Below, piece after piece: positions 183-12,049 of a stretch of 12,776 nt of DNA (the first letter of the stretch is position 1; each line of letters opens with the position of its first letter). Below the pieces are notes generated by a model. It was not told the origin of the DNA. It worked only from the letters and a program-made list of their open reading frames with translations, and made no database searches. This DNA comes from a virus (Duplodnaviria > Heunggongvirae > Uroviricota > Caudoviricetes), in the IMG/VR virus record IMGVR_UViG_2695420701_000012; one strand, written 5' to 3'. The position numbers were made by a program, and so were the translations under genes.

Positions 183-1265
183 TCATTTTCTCTGGCTGAT
201 CTTTACCGGATAACCATCCCGAAGATCAATTAAGTGCTCCGGTTCAGAAGCAAACCATGCATAAGATCCCCACGCCAATTCTGGTATTGCCTTTTTAAAA
301 GGCAGAGCACTTCTGTCCATAAATGCCGTAAGGAATGCAAGATTTTTCTCGCTGAACCCAGCGTCAATAGCCAAATGAGTGAGAGTAACTTTTCGTTCCC
401 TGTTTATAGGCCCATCTGTCGCAACTACTTCAGTGAAAACTACAAGCATGTCCGAACCCGTTCGGTCCTCTCCCAAATCAATCAAAATAATATCTGGAAG
501 TGCTTTTGAGGCATCAATATTCAGCCCCAATGCTTTTGCCAATACATCATCCTGAGCAACAACTTTATTCCCGGATTCAGACAACCAGAGCACAGTTGGA
601 TTCTTAAGAAAATTAGGAGCAAAAACTTCGATGACGGCCTTAGCTATTGTACTTGACGGGCCCGGAGCTAAAGTTCTCTTCTCTCCATTTGGGAAAGTGA
701 CGACTACGGCATCAGCAGCAATCACTGCCCCTGATTTCAATAAACGCAACCTAGCAAGAGCGGCTTTGTTCAAATGATTTTCTTGCCAGGAACTTATTGC
801 ACTCAGCAGCGAATCTCCTTCAAGCCCGGCATCAAAGAGTGCTGCAAAAGAGCGATTCAAACTGTAACGAGGACGAGAGGATGTGGTGGGTATACCTTTA
901 CGCTCAACAATTGCATTGCAAGGTATTAGGCCATTTTTTATAGTTTCATCACGTATTGGCTCACGCGTATTTTCCGCATACCATGCATCAGCAGGCCTTA
1001 TCTTTTGTTTAGAGAAAGTCATCTTTACCCAGCTTTCTCTGGACGCATCATCAGTAAGAGCAGCCTGCGAATCTCCCATACTTACAACCTGGCTGGGCCT
1101 TATCCATCGCCCCAGCCCCTCAACCGCACCAGCATAAAACATGACAAAAATTGTTTTTGCAGCTATTTCCCGAATTAAATATCCACGATTCTCAGTCCCT
1201 TCAGGGAAAATTAATTGTAATCTTTCCCGGATAACATTCAATGGGGGAACAACAGGCAGATTCAT
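183..1265 (-). CDS. Putative restriction endonuclease partner of the adjacent methyltransferase (type II R-M; family unresolved, possibly BsuBI/PstI-like)
   Basis: 360-aa ORF on the same strand, immediately downstream of the methyltransferase. Its ATG (1263-1265) overlaps the methyltransferase TGA stop in an ATGA arrangement, indicating translational coupling. It shares the low GC (~42%) of the methyltransferase gene. I cannot see a clear catalytic motif by eye, so function is inferred from context. Confidence 0.45.
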   Translation of the reverse strand: MNLPVVPPLNVIRERLQLIFPEGTENRGYLIREIAAKTIFVMFYAGAVEGLGRWIRPSQVVSMGDSQAALTDDASRESWVKMTFSKQKIRPADAWYAENTREPIRDETIKNGLIPCNAIVERKGIPTTSSRPRYSLNRSFAALFDAGLEGDSLLSAISSWQENHLNKAALARLRLLKSGAVIAADAVVVTFPNGEKRTLAPGPSSTIAKAVIEVFAPNFLKNPTVLWLSESGNKVVAQDDVLAKALGLNIDASKALPDIILIDLGEDRTGSDMLVVFTEVVATDGPINRERKVTLTHLAIDAGFSEKNLAFLTAFMDRSALPFKKAIPELAWGSYAWFASEPEHLIDLRDGYPVKISQRK

Positions 1266-3094
1266 GCAATCATCACTCCATAGAAACCAGCGATAGTTCT
1301 CTCAATAATCCGTCTGTGGACGCCAGCATCAATTAACGATTGAATCTCCATCACCTGCTCCAGAGAAGGCAACGGGATTGAATTCAATTCATAGGCCGAA
1401 ACAGCAACACTTCCGCTTATACACCTGAACGCCCGATCGACAACATGCGAATTAAGTAGCATATCAATAACATCAGGGCGAACCGCAGAGAACAATCCGT
1501 TTGAATATACAATATTAATATGGTTTTCAACTACTACGCCACCAGTTTCATCTATAAATCCCTGAGGTAAAATTGCCGCTAAAATCCTTCTGTCCTGTTC
1601 CTTCGATGTTGTCCGCTGAACAAGCACACATTCAGATTTTGTCACAAGGAAACCCTGTTGTGGGGTTATATCGATATAGGGAACATGATTTTTTCTGTCT
1701 GCACTAAAACGAAAACCAGCTGAAGTTATTGATTCCGCCCAGACTAATGGGTAGCTATTTTTTCCTTTCGTCGTACGCAACTGCGACTTAAATCGATTCC
1801 AGACTAACTGACCTGTAGAGACTGAGTATCCCAGATCAGCTAAACGCGTAGACATCTGTTTTAATACATTAAGAAAACAGGCATCATCTTTAACGCGTGG
1901 CAAAAGCCACGTTGCTCCACCTTTTTCTATATCAACATTACCTATTTTCTCAATTTTTGCTTTGTTCAACCCCTTAGGGACAAGTGAGGATACCTGGGCC
2001 CGAACTTTATGTTCTCCCGCCTTGAATGCTGTCAACATTGTTTCCTGGAGAACATCGTCAAAGACCCCATCCCTGTCAGTGACGAAATCAAGGGCATACG
2101 GAGTAGTTTTTTCGGTCAAAAGGGTTCGCAGCGCGGTGAAATACTGCCCACCAAGAAAAGAAGTTGGCGTAAGAAATGCAATAACTCCTGTTTTCTCTTT
2201 AACCATGCGAACAGCTAAGTCGGTGAACAATCCATATAGATTTGCATGACCAAATAACGAACGAGAATATTTTTCTCTCGTTTTAATATCGAGAGTGACA
2301 CGTCCGTAAGGCGGATTCCCTACCACAAGATCATAACCAGAAAATTTATCTTGCTGAAGCGCATCAGCAACAATAATTGTATCTTCAGGCAATCTACGTT
2401 TTACCTTTACACATAGTGGCATTAGTACAGATTCGAGCAATACCAAACTCATCCAAGCCGCAAATGGATCGATTTCTATCCCCTTTAAACGACGACTGAT
2501 TCTCCTCAACATCCATTCAGGGGAAGACCCCTTGTCTTTTTTTAACATTCGAATGGCTACTGGTGCCAAAAATGCACCGCCACCACACGCAGGATCAATA
2601 ACCGATGCATGAGAAAAATCAACACCAGACTTTTCAGCCAGGTCCAAGAGACGCGCTACCAAAGGTGGGGGGGTATAGTAAGCCCCCAATTCCGAACGGT
2701 AAGCGGATGGCAGCATTACCGTATAAATTGACCCAATCAGATATCCAGCGTCCTCCGCCGGAAATTGAGCAATAAGCTCACCTGTTCGTTCAGCGAGCTC
2801 GCGTGCATCACATGGAATGTCTTCTATGTAAACAGTGTGCGGTACTGCCCTCATTTTAATGCTGCTTTTTTGCTTTTTTGCAAGGGTATCCCAATATGCA
2901 GCTACGATGCTGAAGCAGTATGAGCGGGCATGCATCAACCTTGACTGCCCGGTTTTGTAATTGCCCGCATAACCTTTGGCCATGGCTTTACAAGTTTGAT
3001 ATCTTTCCAGATTAGAAAACTCATTATCTGTAAAAAAATCAAAATGTTGCACATTCATAATGTAAAATCCTAATGTATCAAACATGCGGGCCAT
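1262..3094 (-). CDS. N6-adenine DNA methyltransferase, gamma-class amino-MTase (SAM-binding motif I before catalytic NPPY motif)
   Basis: 610-aa ORF. The translation contains DPACGGGAFL (motif I-like, FxGxG) around residue 165 and VVGNPPYGRV (motif IV, NPPY) around residue 263, with about 340 aa C-terminal that could be a target-recognition domain. An alternative start at Met13 (3058) has an AGGA Shine-Dalgarno; the exact start is uncertain. Confidence 0.85.
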   Translation of the reverse strand: MARMFDTLGFYIMNVQHFDFFTDNEFSNLERYQTCKAMAKGYAGNYKTGQSRLMHARSYCFSIVAAYWDTLAKKQKSSIKMRAVPHTVYIEDIPCDARELAERTGELIAQFPAEDAGYLIGSIYTVMLPSAYRSELGAYYTPPPLVARLLDLAEKSGVDFSHASVIDPACGGGAFLAPVAIRMLKKDKGSSPEWMLRRISRRLKGIEIDPFAAWMSLVLLESVLMPLCVKVKRRLPEDTIIVADALQQDKFSGYDLVVGNPPYGRVTLDIKTREKYSRSLFGHANLYGLFTDLAVRMVKEKTGVIAFLTPTSFLGGQYFTALRTLLTEKTTPYALDFVTDRDGVFDDVLQETMLTAFKAGEHKVRAQVSSLVPKGLNKAKIEKIGNVDIEKGGATWLLPRVKDDACFLNVLKQMSTRLADLGYSVSTGQLVWNRFKSQLRTTKGKNSYPLVWAESITSAGFRFSADRKNHVPYIDITPQQGFLVTKSECVLVQRTTSKEQDRRILAAILPQGFIDETGGVVVENHINIVYSNGLFSAVRPDVIDMLLNSHVVDRAFRCISGSVAVSAYELNSIPLPSLEQVMEIQSLIDAGVHRRIIERTIAGFYGVMIA

Positions 3095-4907: not shown

Positions 4908-5654
4908 TTACTTCACAACTCCCGGAAAGCTGACATTTGAACGCCAGCTATCCCAGTTAAACGTCACCCACCGACAACCGTTCATGGTCATGCGGTCCAT
5001 AATCCTCTCACCAAGAAGCGTGCTCATTGCGGCATGATTCAGGTTTGTTAACATCCCGACACTGCACAGTGATGCTGTCCGGCGATCAATTATCTGGTGC
5101 AATACCACCTGCTCGTTTTTCGTCTCCCGCTGAATGCCTATTTCATCCAGGACCAGCAAATCAACCCCGCAAAGCTCCTGTAAAAATTTTTCACCGGATT
5201 TGCCGTTGTCGTAGCTGTCATGCAACACGCTCATGACATCAGACACGGTGACGATAATCACGCTGCGCCCCTTCGCCATCAGCCAGTTACCCATCGCCGC
5301 TGCAAGGTGATTTTTCCCGGTGCCGGTTTTACCGCTGAACACAAAATTCGTGCACCCGGTCATCAGTTCGTCAGCTATGGATTTGGCCTGGCTCAGCGCG
5401 TATTTTTGCCCGTCGTTCTGCACCTGATAATTCGCAAACGAGCATTTGCTGTGCAGAGGCTGGATGCCCGAACGATTCAGGATTTTTTCCACCCGCAACT
5501 GGCGATTCTGGCGGTTAATCTCCTCGCTGCGTTTTCGTCCTTCAGCAAGTTGCCATTCCCGCCACTCCTCCACCGTCCGGTACGGTGGAACCGCCCCCTG
5601 TGGTGCAAGTCTGTGAATACGTTCAAGAACCCCGGCTGCCGCAATGTTTTTCAT
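4908..5654 (-). CDS. DnaC-like / IstB-like AAA+ ATPase replication protein (helicase loader, lambda P analogue)
   Basis: 248-aa ORF with Walker A GKTGTGKNHLAAA and Walker B LLVLDEIG, typical of the DnaC/IstB family. Sits 6 nt downstream of the initiator gene. Confidence 0.85.
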   Translation of the reverse strand: MKNIAAAGVLERIHRLAPQGAVPPYRTVEEWREWQLAEGRKRSEEINRQNRQLRVEKILNRSGIQPLHSKCSFANYQVQNDGQKYALSQAKSIADELMTGCTNFVFSGKTGTGKNHLAAAMGNWLMAKGRSVIIVTVSDVMSVLHDSYDNGKSGEKFLQELCGVDLLVLDEIGIQRETKNEQVVLHQIIDRRTASLCSVGMLTNLNHAAMSTLLGERIMDRMTMNGCRWVTFNWDSWRSNVSFPGVVK

Positions 5655-5660
5655 GCCACA

Positions 5661-6725
5661 TCACCCCCTGAATCCCGGCGGAATTTCGGTATCCGGTTCA
5701 GAAATATGATTCACACAACGCTGGTTGTTCGTGCCGCTTACCGGGAGCAACCAGGGGTTTTCAAAATTCCGGTCCGGCCCAAAAAACGTCGTCGCTCGCT
5801 GAACAAATTCCGTTCCCGCTTTCCCGGTCGCCGCCAGGTATCTCGCGTAACGCCTCACACCATCCAGCATGGTCTCTGGTGGCACCCCCTCGCGCAATCT
5901 GGCCTTCCAGGCACTGAATGCGGATTTCTTCGGGTTTGCCCCGGCACGCAACGGGTATTCCCGCCAGACCTGTTCGAACACATCCGGATAATCCACTCGT
6001 CCCACAGGCTGCCCGGTGTTTTCCGGGGCTACCCGATCGGCTTCCCGCTGAATGGCGGAATCGGCTTCAGGCTGCTGCAGTTGGAGTGATTGCTCCGGCC
6101 TTGCGGTCATCACCTGCTGCACAGCGCCCGAATCGGCTTTCAGCGCATACGCTGAATCGGCTTCCGGTGTCGAGCCTGCTGGCTGACCAGGATTGACGGT
6201 CTGAACATCCCCTGCCTGGTTCGTGGCGTTTTTTACGCCATGGACCATAGTGTTTTGATCTTCTTTATCTGTATCTTTATCTGTATCTGTCGTGACTCGT
6301 CGTGACATGTGCGTGACATTTCGTGACGCGCCGTGACAATCGCCATTTTGTTCCCGCTTTCTTTCCCTCTCTCGCTGCGCCCTCTTGCGCTCTGCAGGAG
6401 ATTTTGCGGTTTGCGAAATATTGCCGTTGTCCTCTTTAAGCACCTGGCGTTTTTCCCATCCAGTGATTAAATCACCATCAAGTACCCGCCCCTGCATCGT
6501 CTGCAAAATTGAATCAATTACCTCTTCTGTCACGTCGAGCGCACTTGCCAAATCTTCTGTCGTGACATCAATGTGACCTCGCGTGACATTTCGTGACGCG
6601 CTCACCAGGAGGTGGATATACACTGCCATCACTGTTGCAATTGGCTGCCCTGACACCCTGGCAATTGTTCGCCACTTAGGGTCATTTGGCATGTCATGCC
6701 ATAATCTGAGCCAGGCGTTAGCCAT
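5661..6725 (-). CDS. Replication initiation protein, YdaU-like (lambda O analogue), with intragenic iterons
   Basis: Track ORF starts at a GTG (6731); the ATG at 6725 has an AGAGGTGA Shine-Dalgarno. The N-terminal region looks HTH-like, the middle is an acidic/basic low-complexity linker, and the C-terminal segment (VDYPDVFEQVWREYP...FSAWKARL) resembles the YdaU C-terminal domain as I recall it. It precedes the DnaC-like gene, as O precedes P in lambdoid replication modules. Confidence 0.65.
   Translation of the reverse strand: MANAWLRLWHDMPNDPKWRTIARVSGQPIATVMAVYIHLLVSASRNVTRGHIDVTTEDLASALDVTEEVIDSILQTMQGRVLDGDLITGWEKRQVLKEDNGNISQTAKSPAERKRAQRERERKREQNGDCHGASRNVTHMSRRVTTDTDKDTDKEDQNTMVHGVKNATNQAGDVQTVNPGQPAGSTPEADSAYALKADSGAVQQVMTARPEQSLQLQQPEADSAIQREADRVAPENTGQPVGRVDYPDVFEQVWREYPLRAGANPKKSAFSAWKARLREGVPPETMLDGVRRYARYLAATGKAGTEFVQRATTFFGPDRNFENPWLLPVSGTNNQRCVNHISEPDTEIPPGFRG
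6287..6336. repeat. Iteron cluster 1: five CGTGAC(A/G) repeats at about 10-11 bp period, preceded by a tandem 12-mer (tctttatctgta x2, about 6262-6285)
   Basis: CGTGAC copies start near 6289, 6299, 6310, 6320 and 6330, read directly from the sequence. The helical-phase spacing is typical of initiator binding sites. Confidence 0.6.
6529..6598. repeat. Iteron cluster 2: (C/T)GTGAC repeats at about 10 bp period plus one inverted copy
   Basis: TGTCACG (inverted) at 6529-6535; CGTGACA at 6561, TGTGACC at 6572, CGTGACA at 6582, CGTGACG at 6592. The 20-mer gcgtgacatttcgtgacgcg is shared with cluster 1. Confidence 0.55.
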
Positions 6726-7518: not shown

Positions 7519-7581
7519 AATAGCACTGTTATTTTTAAAAGTAAATAGTGATGCTATTTCAAAGTGATTAGCAATCTTATT
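7519..7581. promoter_or_regulatory. Right operator region (OR-like): palindromes AATAGC-N3-GTTATT (7519-7533), AATAGT-N3-GCTATT (7544-7558) and a weaker ATTAGC-N3-CTTATT (7567-7581), between divergent cro-like and repressor genes
   Basis: Inverted-repeat half-sites read directly from the sequence. The first two centres are 25 bp apart, matching the spacing at 8654-8693. The divergent promoters must lie in this 110-bp interval. Confidence 0.55.
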
Positions 7582-7593
7582 AGAATTGGATGT

Positions 7594-8094
7594 ATGAAAA
7601 GAAAATCATTGTCAGACACCGACCTCAACGCCGCCAGAAGACTGAAAGAAATCTGGATGGCAAAGAAATCTCAGTTGGGATTGACTCAGGAACGTGCGGC
7701 GGAAATTATGGGGTTTTCAACACAAGGGGCGGTAAGTCACTACCTAAATGGTCAAACCCCACTAAACCTTGAGGCTGTTCTAAAGTTTGCTGGCTTACTG
7801 AAAGTTCCCCCTGAGTCAATCAGGCCAGACATGGTAGATTTGCTGCAAATTGCAAGGATGTATTGTCGAGAACCACAGCAAGATAACATAGTCGCATTAC
7901 CAGCAGACACAGAACAAACAGAGGATGAACTACCGTTTGCCGTAGAGCCGATGGAACGAGATTTAATCCATACGTTCAGAGCTTTTCCGAAAGAAGATCA
8001 AGAACACATGCTTCAGGAGATGAAAGATAAAAAAGAATCAATGGATCGTACGGTTGCGCGGTGGTTAGCTGCACAAAAAGGCCGTCGCGCCTAA
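7594..8094 (+). CDS. HTH (XRE-type) prophage repressor / TA-operon regulator, PaaR-like
   Basis: 166 aa from the first ATG; the track ORF starts at a GTG (7564) that would overlap the third operator. HTH segment LTQERAAEIMGFSTQGAVSHYLNG. It is the first gene of a three-gene operon with the antitoxin and ParE toxin, the arrangement I recall for paaR2-paaA2-parE2 in E. coli O157 prophage. Confidence 0.7.
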   Translation: MKRKSLSDTDLNAARRLKEIWMAKKSQLGLTQERAAEIMGFSTQGAVSHYLNGQTPLNLEAVLKFAGLLKVPPESIRPDMVDLLQIARMYCREPQQDNIVALPADTEQTEDELPFAVEPMERDLIHTFRAFPKEDQEHMLQEMKDKKESMDRTVARWLAAQKGRRA

Positions 8095-8113
8095 ATCAGA
8101 GGAGATATGTAAA

Positions 8114-8308
8114 ATGAGTACAGTCCTTTCCCCAATGGTTTCAGAATTTGAGACAGTTGAGCAAGAAAATAGTTACAACGAATGGCTGCGGGCCAAAGTA
8201 GCAGCAAGCCTCGCGGATCCCCGCCCGGCGATTCCGCATGATGAGGTAATGGCGGAAATGGAACAAATTATTGCCCAAATTGCTGCTGCAACTCACAGAG
8301 GTGAATAA
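8114..8308 (+). CDS. Small antitoxin (PaaA-like) of the ParE-family toxin
   Basis: 64-aa acidic ORF with a GAGGAG Shine-Dalgarno upstream. Its TAA stop overlaps the toxin ATG (TAATG at 8306-8310). Confidence 0.65.
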   Translation: MSTVLSPMVSEFETVEQENSYNEWLRAKVAASLADPRPAIPHDEVMAEMEQIIAQIAAATHRGE

Positions 8309-8598
8309 TGTTACCCGTTTTATGGCTACCATCTGCTCGTGATGATTTGCGCCAGATCGTAGCCTACATAGCTAAAGAAAATCCCGCGGCAGCACGCAGA
8401 ATGAAAATTCGAATTGAAACATCCGTTTTGCCGCTCACAGAGCATCCTTACCTGTATCCTCCAAGCGAGCGAGTTCTTGGTCTTCGTGAAATTGTAACTC
8501 ATCCTAACTACATCATCCTTTACCGAGTAACAGCATCAAGCATAGAAGTAGTAAATATTGTGCATTCTCGAAGACAGTATCCAGGCAAAAACAGTTAA
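8308..8598 (+). CDS. parE: ParE/RelE-superfamily toxin
   Basis: 96 aa. The N-terminus (LPVLWLPSARDDLRQIVAYIAKENPAAARR) and C-terminal region (YIILYRVTASSIEVVNIVHSRR) match the ParE pattern as I know it. Translationally coupled to the upstream antitoxin. Confidence 0.8.
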   Translation: MLPVLWLPSARDDLRQIVAYIAKENPAAARRMKIRIETSVLPLTEHPYLYPPSERVLGLREIVTHPNYIILYRVTASSIEVVNIVHSRRQYPGKNS

Positions 8599-8874: not shown

Positions 8875-9027
8875 ATGGATACTATCGATCTTGGCAACAA
8901 CGAATCTCTGGTGTGCGGCGTGTTCCCTAACCAGGATGGAACGTTTACCGCCATGACGTATACCAAAAGCAAAACGTTTAAAACCGAATCTGGCGCGCGT
9001 TGCTGGTTAGCCAGAAACACTGACTGA
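8875..9027 (+). CDS. Hypothetical small protein (50 aa), first gene downstream of the PL-like promoter
   Basis: ATG at 8875 preceded by GAGG with 5-nt spacing. The track ORF extends upstream to 8821 but has no Shine-Dalgarno there. The stop overlaps the next ATG (ATGA). Confidence 0.4.
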   Translation: MDTIDLGNNESLVCGVFPNQDGTFTAMTYTKSKTFKTESGARCWLARNTD

Positions 9028-9404
9028 TGAGGCTGACGATGGAATTTAAAGATTTACCGTCTGATGTACAGAAAACAGCAGCTCATACATTGCATTCTGT
9101 GCTGCGAGAAATCGGGAAAGATATTGCAAGCGAGCCAGCAAAAGATCTGGCCCGGAAAATCAAGACCGCTTTCGTTGAGCTTTATAATGTTGGCACTGAC
9201 TCTGAAACTGTCGAGACCAAGACCGTAAGTTCACCAATATTCTCACTTGAGCCAAGCGTATTATCAGGTGAAATATGCACCGAGATTTCCAGCGAACTGC
9301 TTCCGGTAATACGAGAAGCAATTCGCCGTCGCGGTTTGGATGGAAGTTATGATCATGACGTTCTGCAAGTTCTCAGGACAATGGTGACTTCACTGGGGAT
9401 TTGA
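9027..9404 (+). CDS. Hypothetical phage protein (about 121-125 aa)
   Basis: ORF coupled to the upstream small gene. An alternative ATG at 9039 has a better Shine-Dalgarno (GAGG). No motif recognised. Confidence 0.5.
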   Translation: MRLTMEFKDLPSDVQKTAAHTLHSVLREIGKDIASEPAKDLARKIKTAFVELYNVGTDSETVETKTVSSPIFSLEPSVLSGEICTEISSELLPVIREAIRRRGLDGSYDHDVLQVLRTMVTSLGI

Positions 9405-9573
9405 TCCCTGCGTCCTCTAAGCTTTTGATATAGCGGTCCTCCAAGAAGCGGTAAATTTTGTCGAAATCATCTTTTCCCTCTGGTTTATTCAGAGGATTAC
9501 AGGACCCGTAAGTAGCGGCATACATTTCAACCGTTTTATCAAAAATATAAGAGACAAATTCTTCTTTAGTCAT
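9373..9573 (-). CDS. Hypothetical small protein (66 aa), AT-rich cargo gene with a structured leader
   Basis: ATG at 9573 preceded by an AAGAAGGA Shine-Dalgarno. The track ORF extends to 9747, but that extra stretch is better explained as a leader. Overlaps the 3' end of the convergent plus-strand gene by 32 bp. Confidence 0.45.
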   Translation of the reverse strand: MTKEEFVSYIFDKTVEMYAATYGSCNPLNKPEGKDDFDKIYRFLEDRYIKSLEDAGIKSPVKSPLS

Positions 9574-9773
9574 ATAGATTTCCTTCTTGGTTATTCGGGA
9601 TAAGAAGGATACCACCTCGCCTGACGTGGTTAAAAGCAGGCACACAACGCGAAATGACGCGGCGGTAAGTATGGCGGAGTTATTCCTTCCCCGTTGAGGA
9701 CACCGGGTTGTCAGGTTGACCATACGCTTAAGTGACAACCACGCCACAACACTCCATGTTGATTGGTACCTTT

Positions 9774-9814
9774 GGCGGCATCAGTTTCATTGCTGGCTGA
9801 TGTCCGCCCTTTTT
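9774..9814 (+). terminator. Intrinsic terminator candidate at the start of repeat element X
   Basis: Imperfect inverted repeat ggcggcatcag (9774-9784) / ctgatgtccgcc (9797-9808) followed by ctttttaaa. Repeated in the other copies of the module (for example about 10889-10929). Confidence 0.5.
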
Positions 9815-10298
9815 AAAGTGAATTTTGTGATGCGGTGAATGCGGCTCAGCGCACGCGGCACAGTTAAAAAGCGATTAGTTCCCCCGTATCGGGTGGTTAT
9901 GGGTTTCCCTGTATCCGGCGTTAATTGTTAACTGGTTAACGTCACCTGGAGGCACCAGGCACCGCATCAACAAAGTTCACTTCGGTGATGAAAGGAAAGA
10001 GAAAATGTTGAATGTAGCTATTGAAAACCAGAACGGGTGGAATTATAGTGCACCTGCACCTCATAAAACGGGTGCCGGGATTGCTACCCCGAAGTCATTC
10101 ACGGCGCATAACCGCGCTCAGGCGGTTTTTTTATGCGTAATGCACAGCCACATTCAAATTATGGTGGGGCGTGCGGGGCAGTCGCAAGACTGGCCGGGTT
10201 CTCGAGTGACCGGTATTTCCACCCCTGTACGTCTCACCACCCATGAGATTGCTACCTCCGGTGGTGAGTTAATCAAATTCATCGCGGAGGCTGCCATC

Positions 10299-10427
10299 AT
10301 GGCTACTACCCTTTCTCACCCTTGTGTAACCGTAGAAAACGGTCGCGCTGTCACTACGTCTGTTGCGGTTGCAGAGTTCTTCCACAAACGACACNCAGGA
10401 TATTCACCGGGTCTTGGCGGGGTATAA
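10299..10427 (+). pseudogene. Truncated Rha-family antirepressor N-terminal fragment (copy A)
   Basis: MATTLSHPCVTVENGRAVTTSVAVAEFFHKRH matches the N-terminus of the intact Rha ORF at 12455, but diverges after about 32 codons (an N at 10395) and stops at 10427. Confidence 0.4.
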
Positions 10428-10694
10428 ATACCATGCGCATTGACTGAATTCGCAAACAAAAACAGACGCGCGATACCTGGATAGTCGGTCTGCATAGTCA
10501 GATATCTGGCTGCGAATTTGATAAATATCACCGCCCTTTTCGGAAACATAAGTTCCGTCCGGGAGTTGATTATACGAACCATCTCCATGGGGGATCGTTC
10601 TCCTGAATCCTAGTGAGAGCATATATTTATGAAGCCCTTCGTAATCCTCTGGCTCAGCATTATATAGTTCTACTCTGGCGAGATACGTTGGCAT
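10404..10694 (-). CDS. Hypothetical small protein (96 aa), AT-rich cargo gene with a structured leader
   Basis: ORF 10404-10700; the ATG at 10694 has better spacing to the TAAGGAA Shine-Dalgarno than the ATG at 10700. The leader is homologous to that of the 9373-9573 gene. No family assignable from memory. Confidence 0.5.
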   Translation of the reverse strand: MPTYLARVELYNAEPEDYEGLHKYMLSLGFRRTIPHGDGSYNQLPDGTYVSEKGGDIYQIRSQISDYADRLSRYRASVFVCEFSQCAWYLYPAKTR

Positions 10695-11253
10695 ATTCAT
10701 TTCCTTACTGGTTGTGTGAGAACTTCAGTAAAGATACCACCAAAGCCCGGAGGTGGTGAAATAAAACCGGGCACAACACGAAGGCGCATTTCCGGTATCC
10801 ATAAAGAGTCGGTCTTGTCTGTGAAATTTAAATGGTGGGAGTGCGCTTCCGGTTGTAAATAACGACATTGCTGTGTGAAGTACCAGTTGGCGGCATCGGT
10901 TTAATTGCTGGCTGATGTCCGCCCTTTTTAAAGTGAATTTTGTGATGCGGTGAATGCGGCTCAGCGCACGCGGCACAGTTAAAAAGCGATTAGTTCCCCC
11001 GTATCGGGTGGTTATGGGTTTCCCTGTATCCGGCGTTAATTGTTAACTGGTTAACGTCACCTGGAGGCACCAGGCACCGCATCAACAAAATTCACTTCGG
11101 TGATGAAAGGTGAGAGAAAATGTTGAATGTAGCTATTGAAAACCAGAACGGGTGGAATTATAGTGCACCTGCACCTCATAAAACGGGTGCCGGGATTGCT
11201 ACCCCGAAGTCATTCACGGCGCATAACCGCGCTCAGGCGGTTTTTTTATGCGT

Positions 11254-11274
11254 NNNNNNNNNNNNNNNNNNNNN
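11254..11274. other. Assembly gap (21 N); a second gap of 10 N lies at 11787-11796 and a single N at 10395
   Basis: N characters in the sequence. Both runs fall exactly at boundaries of the repeated module, typical of scaffolded repeat collapse. Confidence 0.95.
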
Positions 11275-12049
11275 TTGATTGGTACCTTTGGCGGCATCAG
11301 TTTCATTGCTGGCTGATGTCCGCCCTTTTTAAAGTGAATTTTGTGATGCGGTGAATGCGGCTATGCGCACGCGGCACAGTTAAAAGTCATGTTAGTCCTT
11401 ATTGGTTTGGGTGGGAAAGCCAACTGTAATTGTTAACTGGTTAACGTCACCTGGAGGCACCAGGCACCGCATCAACAAAGTTCACTTCGGTGATGAAAGG
11501 AAAGAGAAAATGTTGAATGTAGCTATTGAAAACCAGAACGGGTGGAATTATAGTGCACCTGCACCTTATAAAACGGGTGCCGGGCGTGGAAACCCGAACG
11601 TTACTCGAGCGCATAGCCGCGCTGAAGCGGTTTTTTTATGCGTAATGCACAGCTCCATTCAAATTATGGTGGGATGTGCAGGGCAGTCGCAAGACTGGCC
11701 GGGTTCTCGAGTGACCGGTATTTCCACCCCTGTACGTCTCACCACCCTTATGGTCGTGGAAAACCTCGGTGGTGAGTTAATTAACTNNNNNNNNNNCGGA
11801 GGTGGTGAAATAAAACCGGGCACAACACGAAGGCGCATTTCCGGTATCCATAAAGAGTCGGTCTTGTCTGTGAAATTTAAATGGTGGGAGTGCGCTTCCG
11901 GTTGTAAATAACGACATTGCTGTGTGAAGTACCAGTTGGCGGCATCGGTTTAATTGCTGGCTGATGTCCGCCCTTTTTAAAGTGAATTTTGTGATGCGGT
12001 GAATGCGGCTATGCGCACGCGGCACAGTTAAAAGTCATGTTAGTCCTTA

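Follow-up and report, generated by a model that had tools for sequence, protein, structure and literature searches.

The stretch of DNA analysed here (the window; 12,776 nucleotides, IMG/VR record IMGVR_UViG_2695420701_000012) represents an E. coli-type lambdoid prophage similar to Rac/Qin and contains the following features:

183–3094, minus strand: BsuBI/PstI-family restriction endonuclease (360 aa) and Eco57I/N6_Mtase-type methyltransferase (610 aa)
Minus strand, other products: DUF977, DUF1627, YdaV-like and YdaT-like proteins and a Cro-like HTH protein
7564–8598, plus strand: 176-aa HTH repressor, then PaaA2 antitoxin (PF21217) and ParE toxin (PF05016)
9027–9404, plus strand: 125-aa ydfB-like gene, which converges on and overlaps the 66-aa gene and lies within the exchangeable block
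9373–9573, minus strand: coding sequence of the 66-aa protein, alternative occupant of the slot, with AAGGA 8 nt upstream
9761–9809, plus strand: DicF-like element, right-hand boundary of the 66-aa cassette (RF00039, 38.8 bits, E 1.9e-6)
10056–10132, plus strand: isrK (RF01394)
10157–10244, plus strand: C4 antisense RNA (RF01695)
10395: single N, a scaffold join of two unrelated contigs, the left one with the rha 5' end and the right one with the 3' flank of the 96-aa gene
10404–10694, minus strand: coding sequence of the 96-aa GhoS/DUF2622/YmfI-like protein, stop codon TGA at 10406–10404
10695–10873, minus strand: 5' region of the 96-aa gene, with the ribosome binding site AAGGA at 10706–10702 and a candidate promoter read from the sequence
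10874–10924, plus strand: DicF-like sRNA/terminator element (RF00039, 28.6 bits, E 1e-3; below the Rfam threshold)

The restriction-modification cargo forms the left end of the window and has a GC content of 43–44%. The repressor, PaaA2 and ParE genes are placed at the immunity region, and this trio looks like the PaaR2-PaaA2-ParE2 three-gene module of an O157:H7 cryptic prophage. A DUF1391 (YdfA-like) gene and the 125-aa gene are further genes on the plus strand.

The 3' third of the window is a scaffold, with the single N at 10395 and N runs at 11254–11274 and 11787–11796. Among 5426 complete E. coli genomes, alignments at the single N either stopped at query base 99 or began at base 101, and not one of them crossed it. 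Up to 10394, the sequence aligns with the rha 5' end, and from 10396 it aligns with another place in complete genomes (6000 onward in locus L002); the stretch 9300–11100 was found in one piece in no record. The sequence-only reading had placed the 96-aa gene where the rha body belongs, but this arrangement is the scaffold join itself. The N and the N runs divide the 3' third into four contigs, each of which carries a partial DicF-like/isrK/C4/rha module, with mutual identities of 87–98%. The apparent tandem array consists of scaffolded repeats of different prophages and is no true tandem duplication, and the "copies" of the regulatory module are separate contigs that probably stem from several related prophages of one draft genome. 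The rearranged look of the antirepressor locus is a scaffolding artefact, and a biological interpretation of it is unwarranted.

On the plus strand, the order is DicF-like element, isrK, C4 and the start of the Rha-family antirepressor, which are the regulatory blocks that had been lettered X, Y and Z; the observation that both small genes lie on the strand opposite to the Rha module with these RNA elements in between was correct. Both DicF-like scores have to be read against the Rfam gathering score of 48 for DicF (RF00039), and canonical DicF occupies the same slot in loci L004, L006, L010, L014, and L018. Further DicF-like copies were located by homology at approximately 11282 and approximately 11929. 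Three sRNA elements thus precede the antirepressor, with the DicF-like element directly upstream of isrK and C4 in the early-left operon. The isrK and C4 elements belong to the rha-side module and not to the small genes. As a side aspect, the "Rha family" coding sequence called by PGAP (MLNVAIENQNGW...) has its start codon, an ATG, ahead of isrK and C4 and reads in frame through both (6712–7560 in L002; 10005 onward and 12158 onward in the window), and the Pfam Rha domain begins only past ATG 12455. This start is either a mis-called N-terminal extension or the beginning of a conserved long frame across the sRNAs.

Two ATG codons are candidate starts of the gene on the minus strand, at 10700 (98 aa) and at 10694 (96 aa). 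The spacing from the AAGGA motif is 7 nt for ATG 10694 and only 1 nt for ATG 10700. The second methionine is also where the PHROG and family profiles start. Based on this spacing and on the profile start, the 96-aa form is the likely product and use of the upstream ATG is unlikely, in agreement with the coordinates 10404–10694 that had been proposed. The dN/dS values of 0.13–0.25, determined against the Salmonella and MAG orthologues, show that the gene is under purifying selection, and together with the open reading frame, its ribosome binding site and the homologue clusters described below, they demonstrate that it is real. At 99% identity or more, it is found in 19 complete E. coli genomes (e.g., L001 6011–6298 and L002 6011–6298), and in none of the 19, all of which have the intact frame, is it covered by a RefSeq/PGAP annotation; instead, PGAP annotated the overlapping plus-strand gene as a pseudogene with "missing C-terminus".

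In the 5' region, a candidate extended −10 element (TG at 10739–10738, TATCTT at 10736–10731) follows TTCACC (10760–10755) with an 18-nt spacer and may represent the promoter of the 96-aa gene. With 8 of 12 consensus matches this candidate is weak, and a sigma-70 promoter scan called nothing in the region. The stretch is kept in the Salmonella locus, where the −10 element TGgTATACT is a better match. A LexA box was not seen by eye in the 5' region. Regarding base composition, both small genes had been described as AT-richer than their surroundings, which is clearer for the 66-aa gene (40.3% GC) and marginal for the 96-aa gene (46.0%) when compared to the window (47.8%); the other window genes range from 43 to 55%.

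An exhaustive profile search for relatives of the 96-aa protein recovered at least 938 cluster representatives at E ≤ 1e-3 (clusters defined at 50% identity), nearly all of them stand-alone proteins of 92–100 aa. The protein itself had no hit in Pfam, and PF11080 (GhoS, formerly DUF2622) did not appear at E ≤ 1. Homologues with 67–88% identity scored 12.3–17.7 bits on PF11080, below its gathering cut-off of 21 bits, and 40 of 83 wider family members matched PF11080 at E ≤ 0.1, the best at 2.4e-8. The link to PF11080 therefore exists at the level of the family and not for the 96-aa protein alone. Salmonella proteins that are 85–88% identical are named "DUF2622 domain-containing" by NCBI. The best NCBIfam model was NF051477 YmfI_phage (52.9 bits, E 4.1e-14, profile positions 3–88 of 89), and YmfI of the K-12 cryptic prophage e14 aligned over the full length (26% identity, E 1e-9). 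As the equivalog cut-off of NF051477 is 140 bits, the 96-aa protein is, judged by its profile score, a YmfI homologue and not a YmfI equivalog. An alignment to canonical GhoS with hhalign was in register at a probability of only 24–25%, alike with a single sequence and with the GhoS alignment.

The AlphaFold2 model that was generated with an 83-sequence alignment had a pLDDT of 91.7 and the order beta-alpha-beta-beta-beta-alpha-beta, which is the ferredoxin-like fold of GhoS. A PDB sequence search with the protein and with the family profile gave nothing relevant, and Foldseek found no significant match to the 96-aa protein among the BFVD viral models. The profile and fold results place the 96-aa protein in the GhoS/DUF2622/YmfI group as a distant member, although it had initially been regarded as not assignable to any family. 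The sequence-only reading had also named clear homology to a characterised family as an argument against its own proposal, and for the 96-aa protein such homology has been found in part, namely to this group. Canonical GhoS occurs only in E. coli and Shigella; the group of the 96-aa protein is found in phages of Enterobacteria, Pseudomonas, Burkholderia, and Ralstonia. A literature search for ymfI, DUF2622, GhoS-like, and PF11080 yielded no functional study; the mentions found were lists of SOS genes, in which ymfI is "unknown", and one phage annotation as "GhoS-like antitoxin".

Within the family, R7 and Y18 are invariant, and E9, L21, H22, M25, P45, Y49, W88, and L90 are conserved to at least 90%. 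In the hhalign register, which has a probability of approximately 25%, E9 falls on D15 and H22 on R28 of GhoS. [quoted passage not shown] As, in this register, the position of the catalytic arginine of GhoS is a histidine in the 96-aa protein, and as YmfI is devoid of the conserved residues, RNase activity is not assured.

In the E. coli type V system GhoT/GhoS, the antitoxin is the endoribonuclease GhoS (YjdK; PF11080, PDB 2LLZ). With an identity of only 14%, a score below the Pfam cut-off and an hhalign probability of about 25%, the 96-aa protein is far from it in sequence, and the genetic organisation differs as well: GhoS is encoded in a chromosomal two-gene operon, whereas the 96-aa gene is phage-borne and counter-oriented, without a ghoT-like gene in the cassette. 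A small hydrophobic, GhoT-like open reading frame was not present in 10396–10930, and the co-operonic membrane toxin gene that defines a type V system (ghoT, PF10753) was absent from this segment and from all sampled loci. With YmfI, a clear homologue (NF051477), the resemblance extends to gene position, as ymfI likewise lies antisense in the early-left operon, between repressor and xis/int, where it converges on and overlaps ymfJ. YmfI differs in that it does not have R7, E9, Y18, and H22 and in that it belongs to a different type of prophage. Similarity to Cas2, a CRISPR adaptation protein and RNase, concerns the fold only; there was no Cas2 match in Pfam, no cas1 or other cas gene among the open reading frames of the window and no CRISPR array nearby, and the 96-aa gene is found in the context of a prophage moron instead.

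We compared gene neighborhoods in 27 IMG/VR loci, 22 of which are of the E. coli Rac/Qin type, and in two complete genomes. In the E. coli type, the 96-aa gene converges on and overlaps a 67-aa ydfB-like gene that is followed by the DUF1391 gene toward the immunity side, scored wherever the contig extends that far. On the divergent side, there is either canonical DicF followed by KilR-YdaE-RecE, or the DicF-like/isrK/C4 elements followed by Rha with or without DicB. The DicF-KilR-YdaE-RecE arrangement, without Rha, is found in roughly half of the near-identical E. coli loci, and a gene of at least 99% identity faces DicF-KilR-RecE without Rha in L001, L004, L006, L008, L010, L014, L016, and L018. 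As the divergent neighbor can thus be of the KilR or of the Rha type, the 96-aa gene has no fixed association with the antirepressor. In nine further contexts, of phages or prophages, homologues likewise oppose a flanking phage operon, their site being either the early-left operon or the interval from antiterminator Q to the lysis genes. The individual surroundings of homologues were:

Salmonella: adjoining cI
MAG: between cI and KilR
Citrobacter-type prophages and another lineage: between antiterminator Q and holin
Pseudomonas phage Cruim01: early-left operon
Burkholderia phage Magia: near RusA
Ralstonia phage Dina: near the integrase
Further homologue: DUF551 early operon
P2-like element: adjoining the portal gene, in a cassette with a SocA/Panacea-domain gene
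Further homologue: island with Xre-MbcA/ParS and ImmA-like genes
K-12 e14 ymfI: same antisense, convergent-overlap topology

Throughout the phage and prophage contexts sampled, the gene opposes at least one flanking operon. Across these contexts, no recurrent partner gene was found beside the 96-aa gene or its homologues, and the neighbors are unrelated phage genes. In the P2-like element (L043, 353–1651), the same-strand cassette consists of the SocA/Panacea antitoxin-domain gene, a gene for an unassigned 155-aa protein and then the distant GhoS-like homologue, which could possibly reflect a toxin-antitoxin or defence association for part of the GhoS-like family.

The cassette-like exchange that had been suspected was confirmed in complete genomes, where two genes swap at one slot. 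A comparison of BLR(DE3), which is of the 66-aa type, with DEC5A, which is of the 96-aa type, showed that homology breaks off where the DUF1391 gene ends and starts again at DicF; in the window, the DicF-like element at 10874–10924 is the corresponding right-hand boundary at which homology between the types resumes. From these boundaries, it follows that three parts are swapped together, namely the ydfB-like gene on the plus strand, the small antisense gene and the 5' region of the latter. As the presence, absence or swapping of a gene with sharp boundaries is a hallmark of morons, it is relevant that the 96-aa gene was counted in 19 complete E. coli genomes and the 66-aa gene, in the same slot, in 398, B strains among them; phage mEp460 also has the 66-aa gene. 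The second hallmark, an orientation separate from the host operon, was also found, with a putative promoter. Of a third, a GC content that departs from that of the flanks, the values given above show little for the 96-aa gene and more for the 66-aa gene. The 66-aa gene is unrelated to the 96-aa gene and is the alternative cargo of its slot. Its product belongs to a narrow group of E. coli, Shigella, and Cedecea proteins, for which we found no family, and was modelled as a two-helix hairpin (pLDDT 81.9) with generic structural matches only.

The convergent neighbors of the GhoS-like genes come from unrelated families and nevertheless share the C-terminal tail GR(A/S)G..LG.V, which is encoded by DNA that overlaps and lies just 3' of the stop codon of the GhoS-like gene. 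This common tail indicates that the gene is moved together with a short piece of its 3' flank and thereby gives the recipient gene a new C-terminus; it is this recipient gene that PGAP marks as having a "missing C-terminus". We also considered the convergent neighbor as a conserved partner of the small gene and rejected it, as the neighbors belong to different families and the tail is explained by the overlap with the 3' end of the cassette.

Lambdoid morons that run against the direction of their operon are known from lambda, with sieB and rexAB as examples. Like such morons, the 96-aa gene is small and independently oriented, it is found in the early-left operon or downstream of Q, and it is present, absent or swapped among otherwise homologous prophages. 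The likeness concerns gene position only, as neither sequence nor fold relates SieB or RexAB to the 96-aa protein. The data thus support the view that both small genes are exchangeable accessory cassettes of the moron type, in a slot that reaches from the DUF1391 and ydfB-like genes to DicF. Of the two roles that had been put forward from the sequence, small accessory cargo or antirepressor regulator, the former is borne out by the exchange and by homologues at other classic moron sites against the operon direction.

With regard to function, we lean on balance toward the view that the 96-aa gene is an exchangeable moron whose GhoS/Cas2-fold product is a probable stand-alone RNA-targeting effector. 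The gene would be a self-contained small cassette with its own start signals that is borne by temperate phages, and its orientation against the surrounding phage operon would permit expression in a lysogen in which the early and late operons are shut off. The product is a single-domain protein with the GhoS/Cas2 fold, belongs to a large phage-borne group that is sister to GhoS, and would most likely bind or cleave RNA alone; a stand-alone mode of action is suggested by the fact that no GhoT-type toxin gene accompanies the gene. Candidate targets would be leaky kilR, dicB or holin transcripts of the own prophage, RNAs of superinfecting phages, or host mRNAs.

A more specific role, which we regard as unlikely, would be that of a type V-like guardian that cleaves leaky mRNA of lethal prophage neighbors and so keeps the lysogen viable, the neighbors being kilR, dicB or rha in the early-left slot and holin in the Q-lysis slot. 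Homology to GhoS and the common fold speak for such a role, as does the toxicity of the divergent neighbors in the E. coli, MAG, and Q-lysis contexts (KilR, DicB/Rha, and holins), and GhoS itself cleaves a toxin mRNA (PMC4010927). However, these slots are generic hot spots of morons, so that proximity to kil or holin genes would arise by chance, and other homologues adjoin portal, integrase or RusA genes with no obvious toxin. Similarly doubtful is a role in anti-phage defence or superinfection exclusion, in which an RNase expressed by the prophage would act against transcripts of the incoming phage or shut down the cell abortively. It can draw on the counter-oriented moron position, which from general knowledge is like that of sieB and rex, on the homologue that shares a cassette with the SocA/Panacea antitoxin-domain gene beside the portal gene of the P2-like element, on the homologue in the island with Xre-MbcA/ParS and ImmA-like genes, and on the restriction-modification and PaaA2/ParE modules in the window. 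Moreover, two mutations suffice to turn GhoS into a toxic RNase (PMC4010927). On the other hand, PADLOC had no model that matched the 96-aa protein, the 66-aa protein or four homologues, the literature search revealed no tie between the family and defence, and a single 96-aa protein has no evident sensor domain.

Much less probable than either is regulation of the divergent Rha antirepressor module by a protein similar to P22 Mnt, the immI repressor that is divergent from arc-ant. The likeness is limited to the divergent position, which the window and roughly half of the E. coli loci show relative to DicF-like/isrK/C4/rha. In the remaining loci, including the eight listed above, the gene faces KilR and not Rha, in other genera it is nowhere near an antirepressor, and the pairing is therefore not conserved. 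Unlike Mnt and Arc, neither small protein has a ribbon-helix-helix or an HTH in its predicted fold, the predicted fold of the 96-aa protein is not of a DNA-binding type, and the isrK/C4 modules are under RNA control according to their Rfam families. The antirepressor-regulator proposal was hence abandoned. Least credible of all is that the 96-aa frame is a remnant or a spurious antisense frame across a decayed ydfB/ydfC-type gene. The missing RefSeq annotation in the 19 complete genomes and the overlap with the pseudogene call would fit this idea, but the dN/dS values, the large and diverse family of proteins of 92–100 aa, the confidently predicted fold and the good ribosome binding site contradict it.

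The 96-aa gene is therefore best described as an uncharacterised phage moron of the GhoS/DUF2622 superfamily, and the family to which it belongs is large, phage-borne, orphan and unstudied. To our knowledge, GhoS is the only characterised type V antitoxin, and it is usually treated as an oddity of E. coli. The present analysis sets it beside a much larger phage-borne group that includes ymfI of K-12 e14 and always comes without GhoT, and it suggests RNA cleavage as a concrete candidate function of a frequent type of "hypothetical" gene in prophages. A far-reaching generalisation, which we put forward as speculative, would be that temperate phages of many proteobacteria carry a large orphan clade of GhoS/Cas2-fold proteins as counter-oriented morons, and that these would be stand-alone sequence-specific RNases made in the lysogen. 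If true, such RNases would either silence leaky kil, dicB or holin transcripts of their own prophage, like a type V antitoxin that has no toxin of its own, or be directed at the RNA of incoming phages; the chromosomal GhoS, with its narrow range in E. coli, would then descend from the phage family by domestication.

Two observations at the loci of homologues may be added. In a metagenomic viral contig (L027), an isrJ match (RF01393, 75 bits, 5963–6034) lies just downstream of and opposite to a GhoS-like homologue of 57% identity. In the early-left operon of a MAG prophage (L037), a second counter-oriented gene (5239–5532) is located about 470 bp upstream of the GhoS-like gene; it encodes a 97-aa protein with a Cys-rich N-terminus that is unrelated to GhoS, which suggests that the early-left slot gathers antisense morons.
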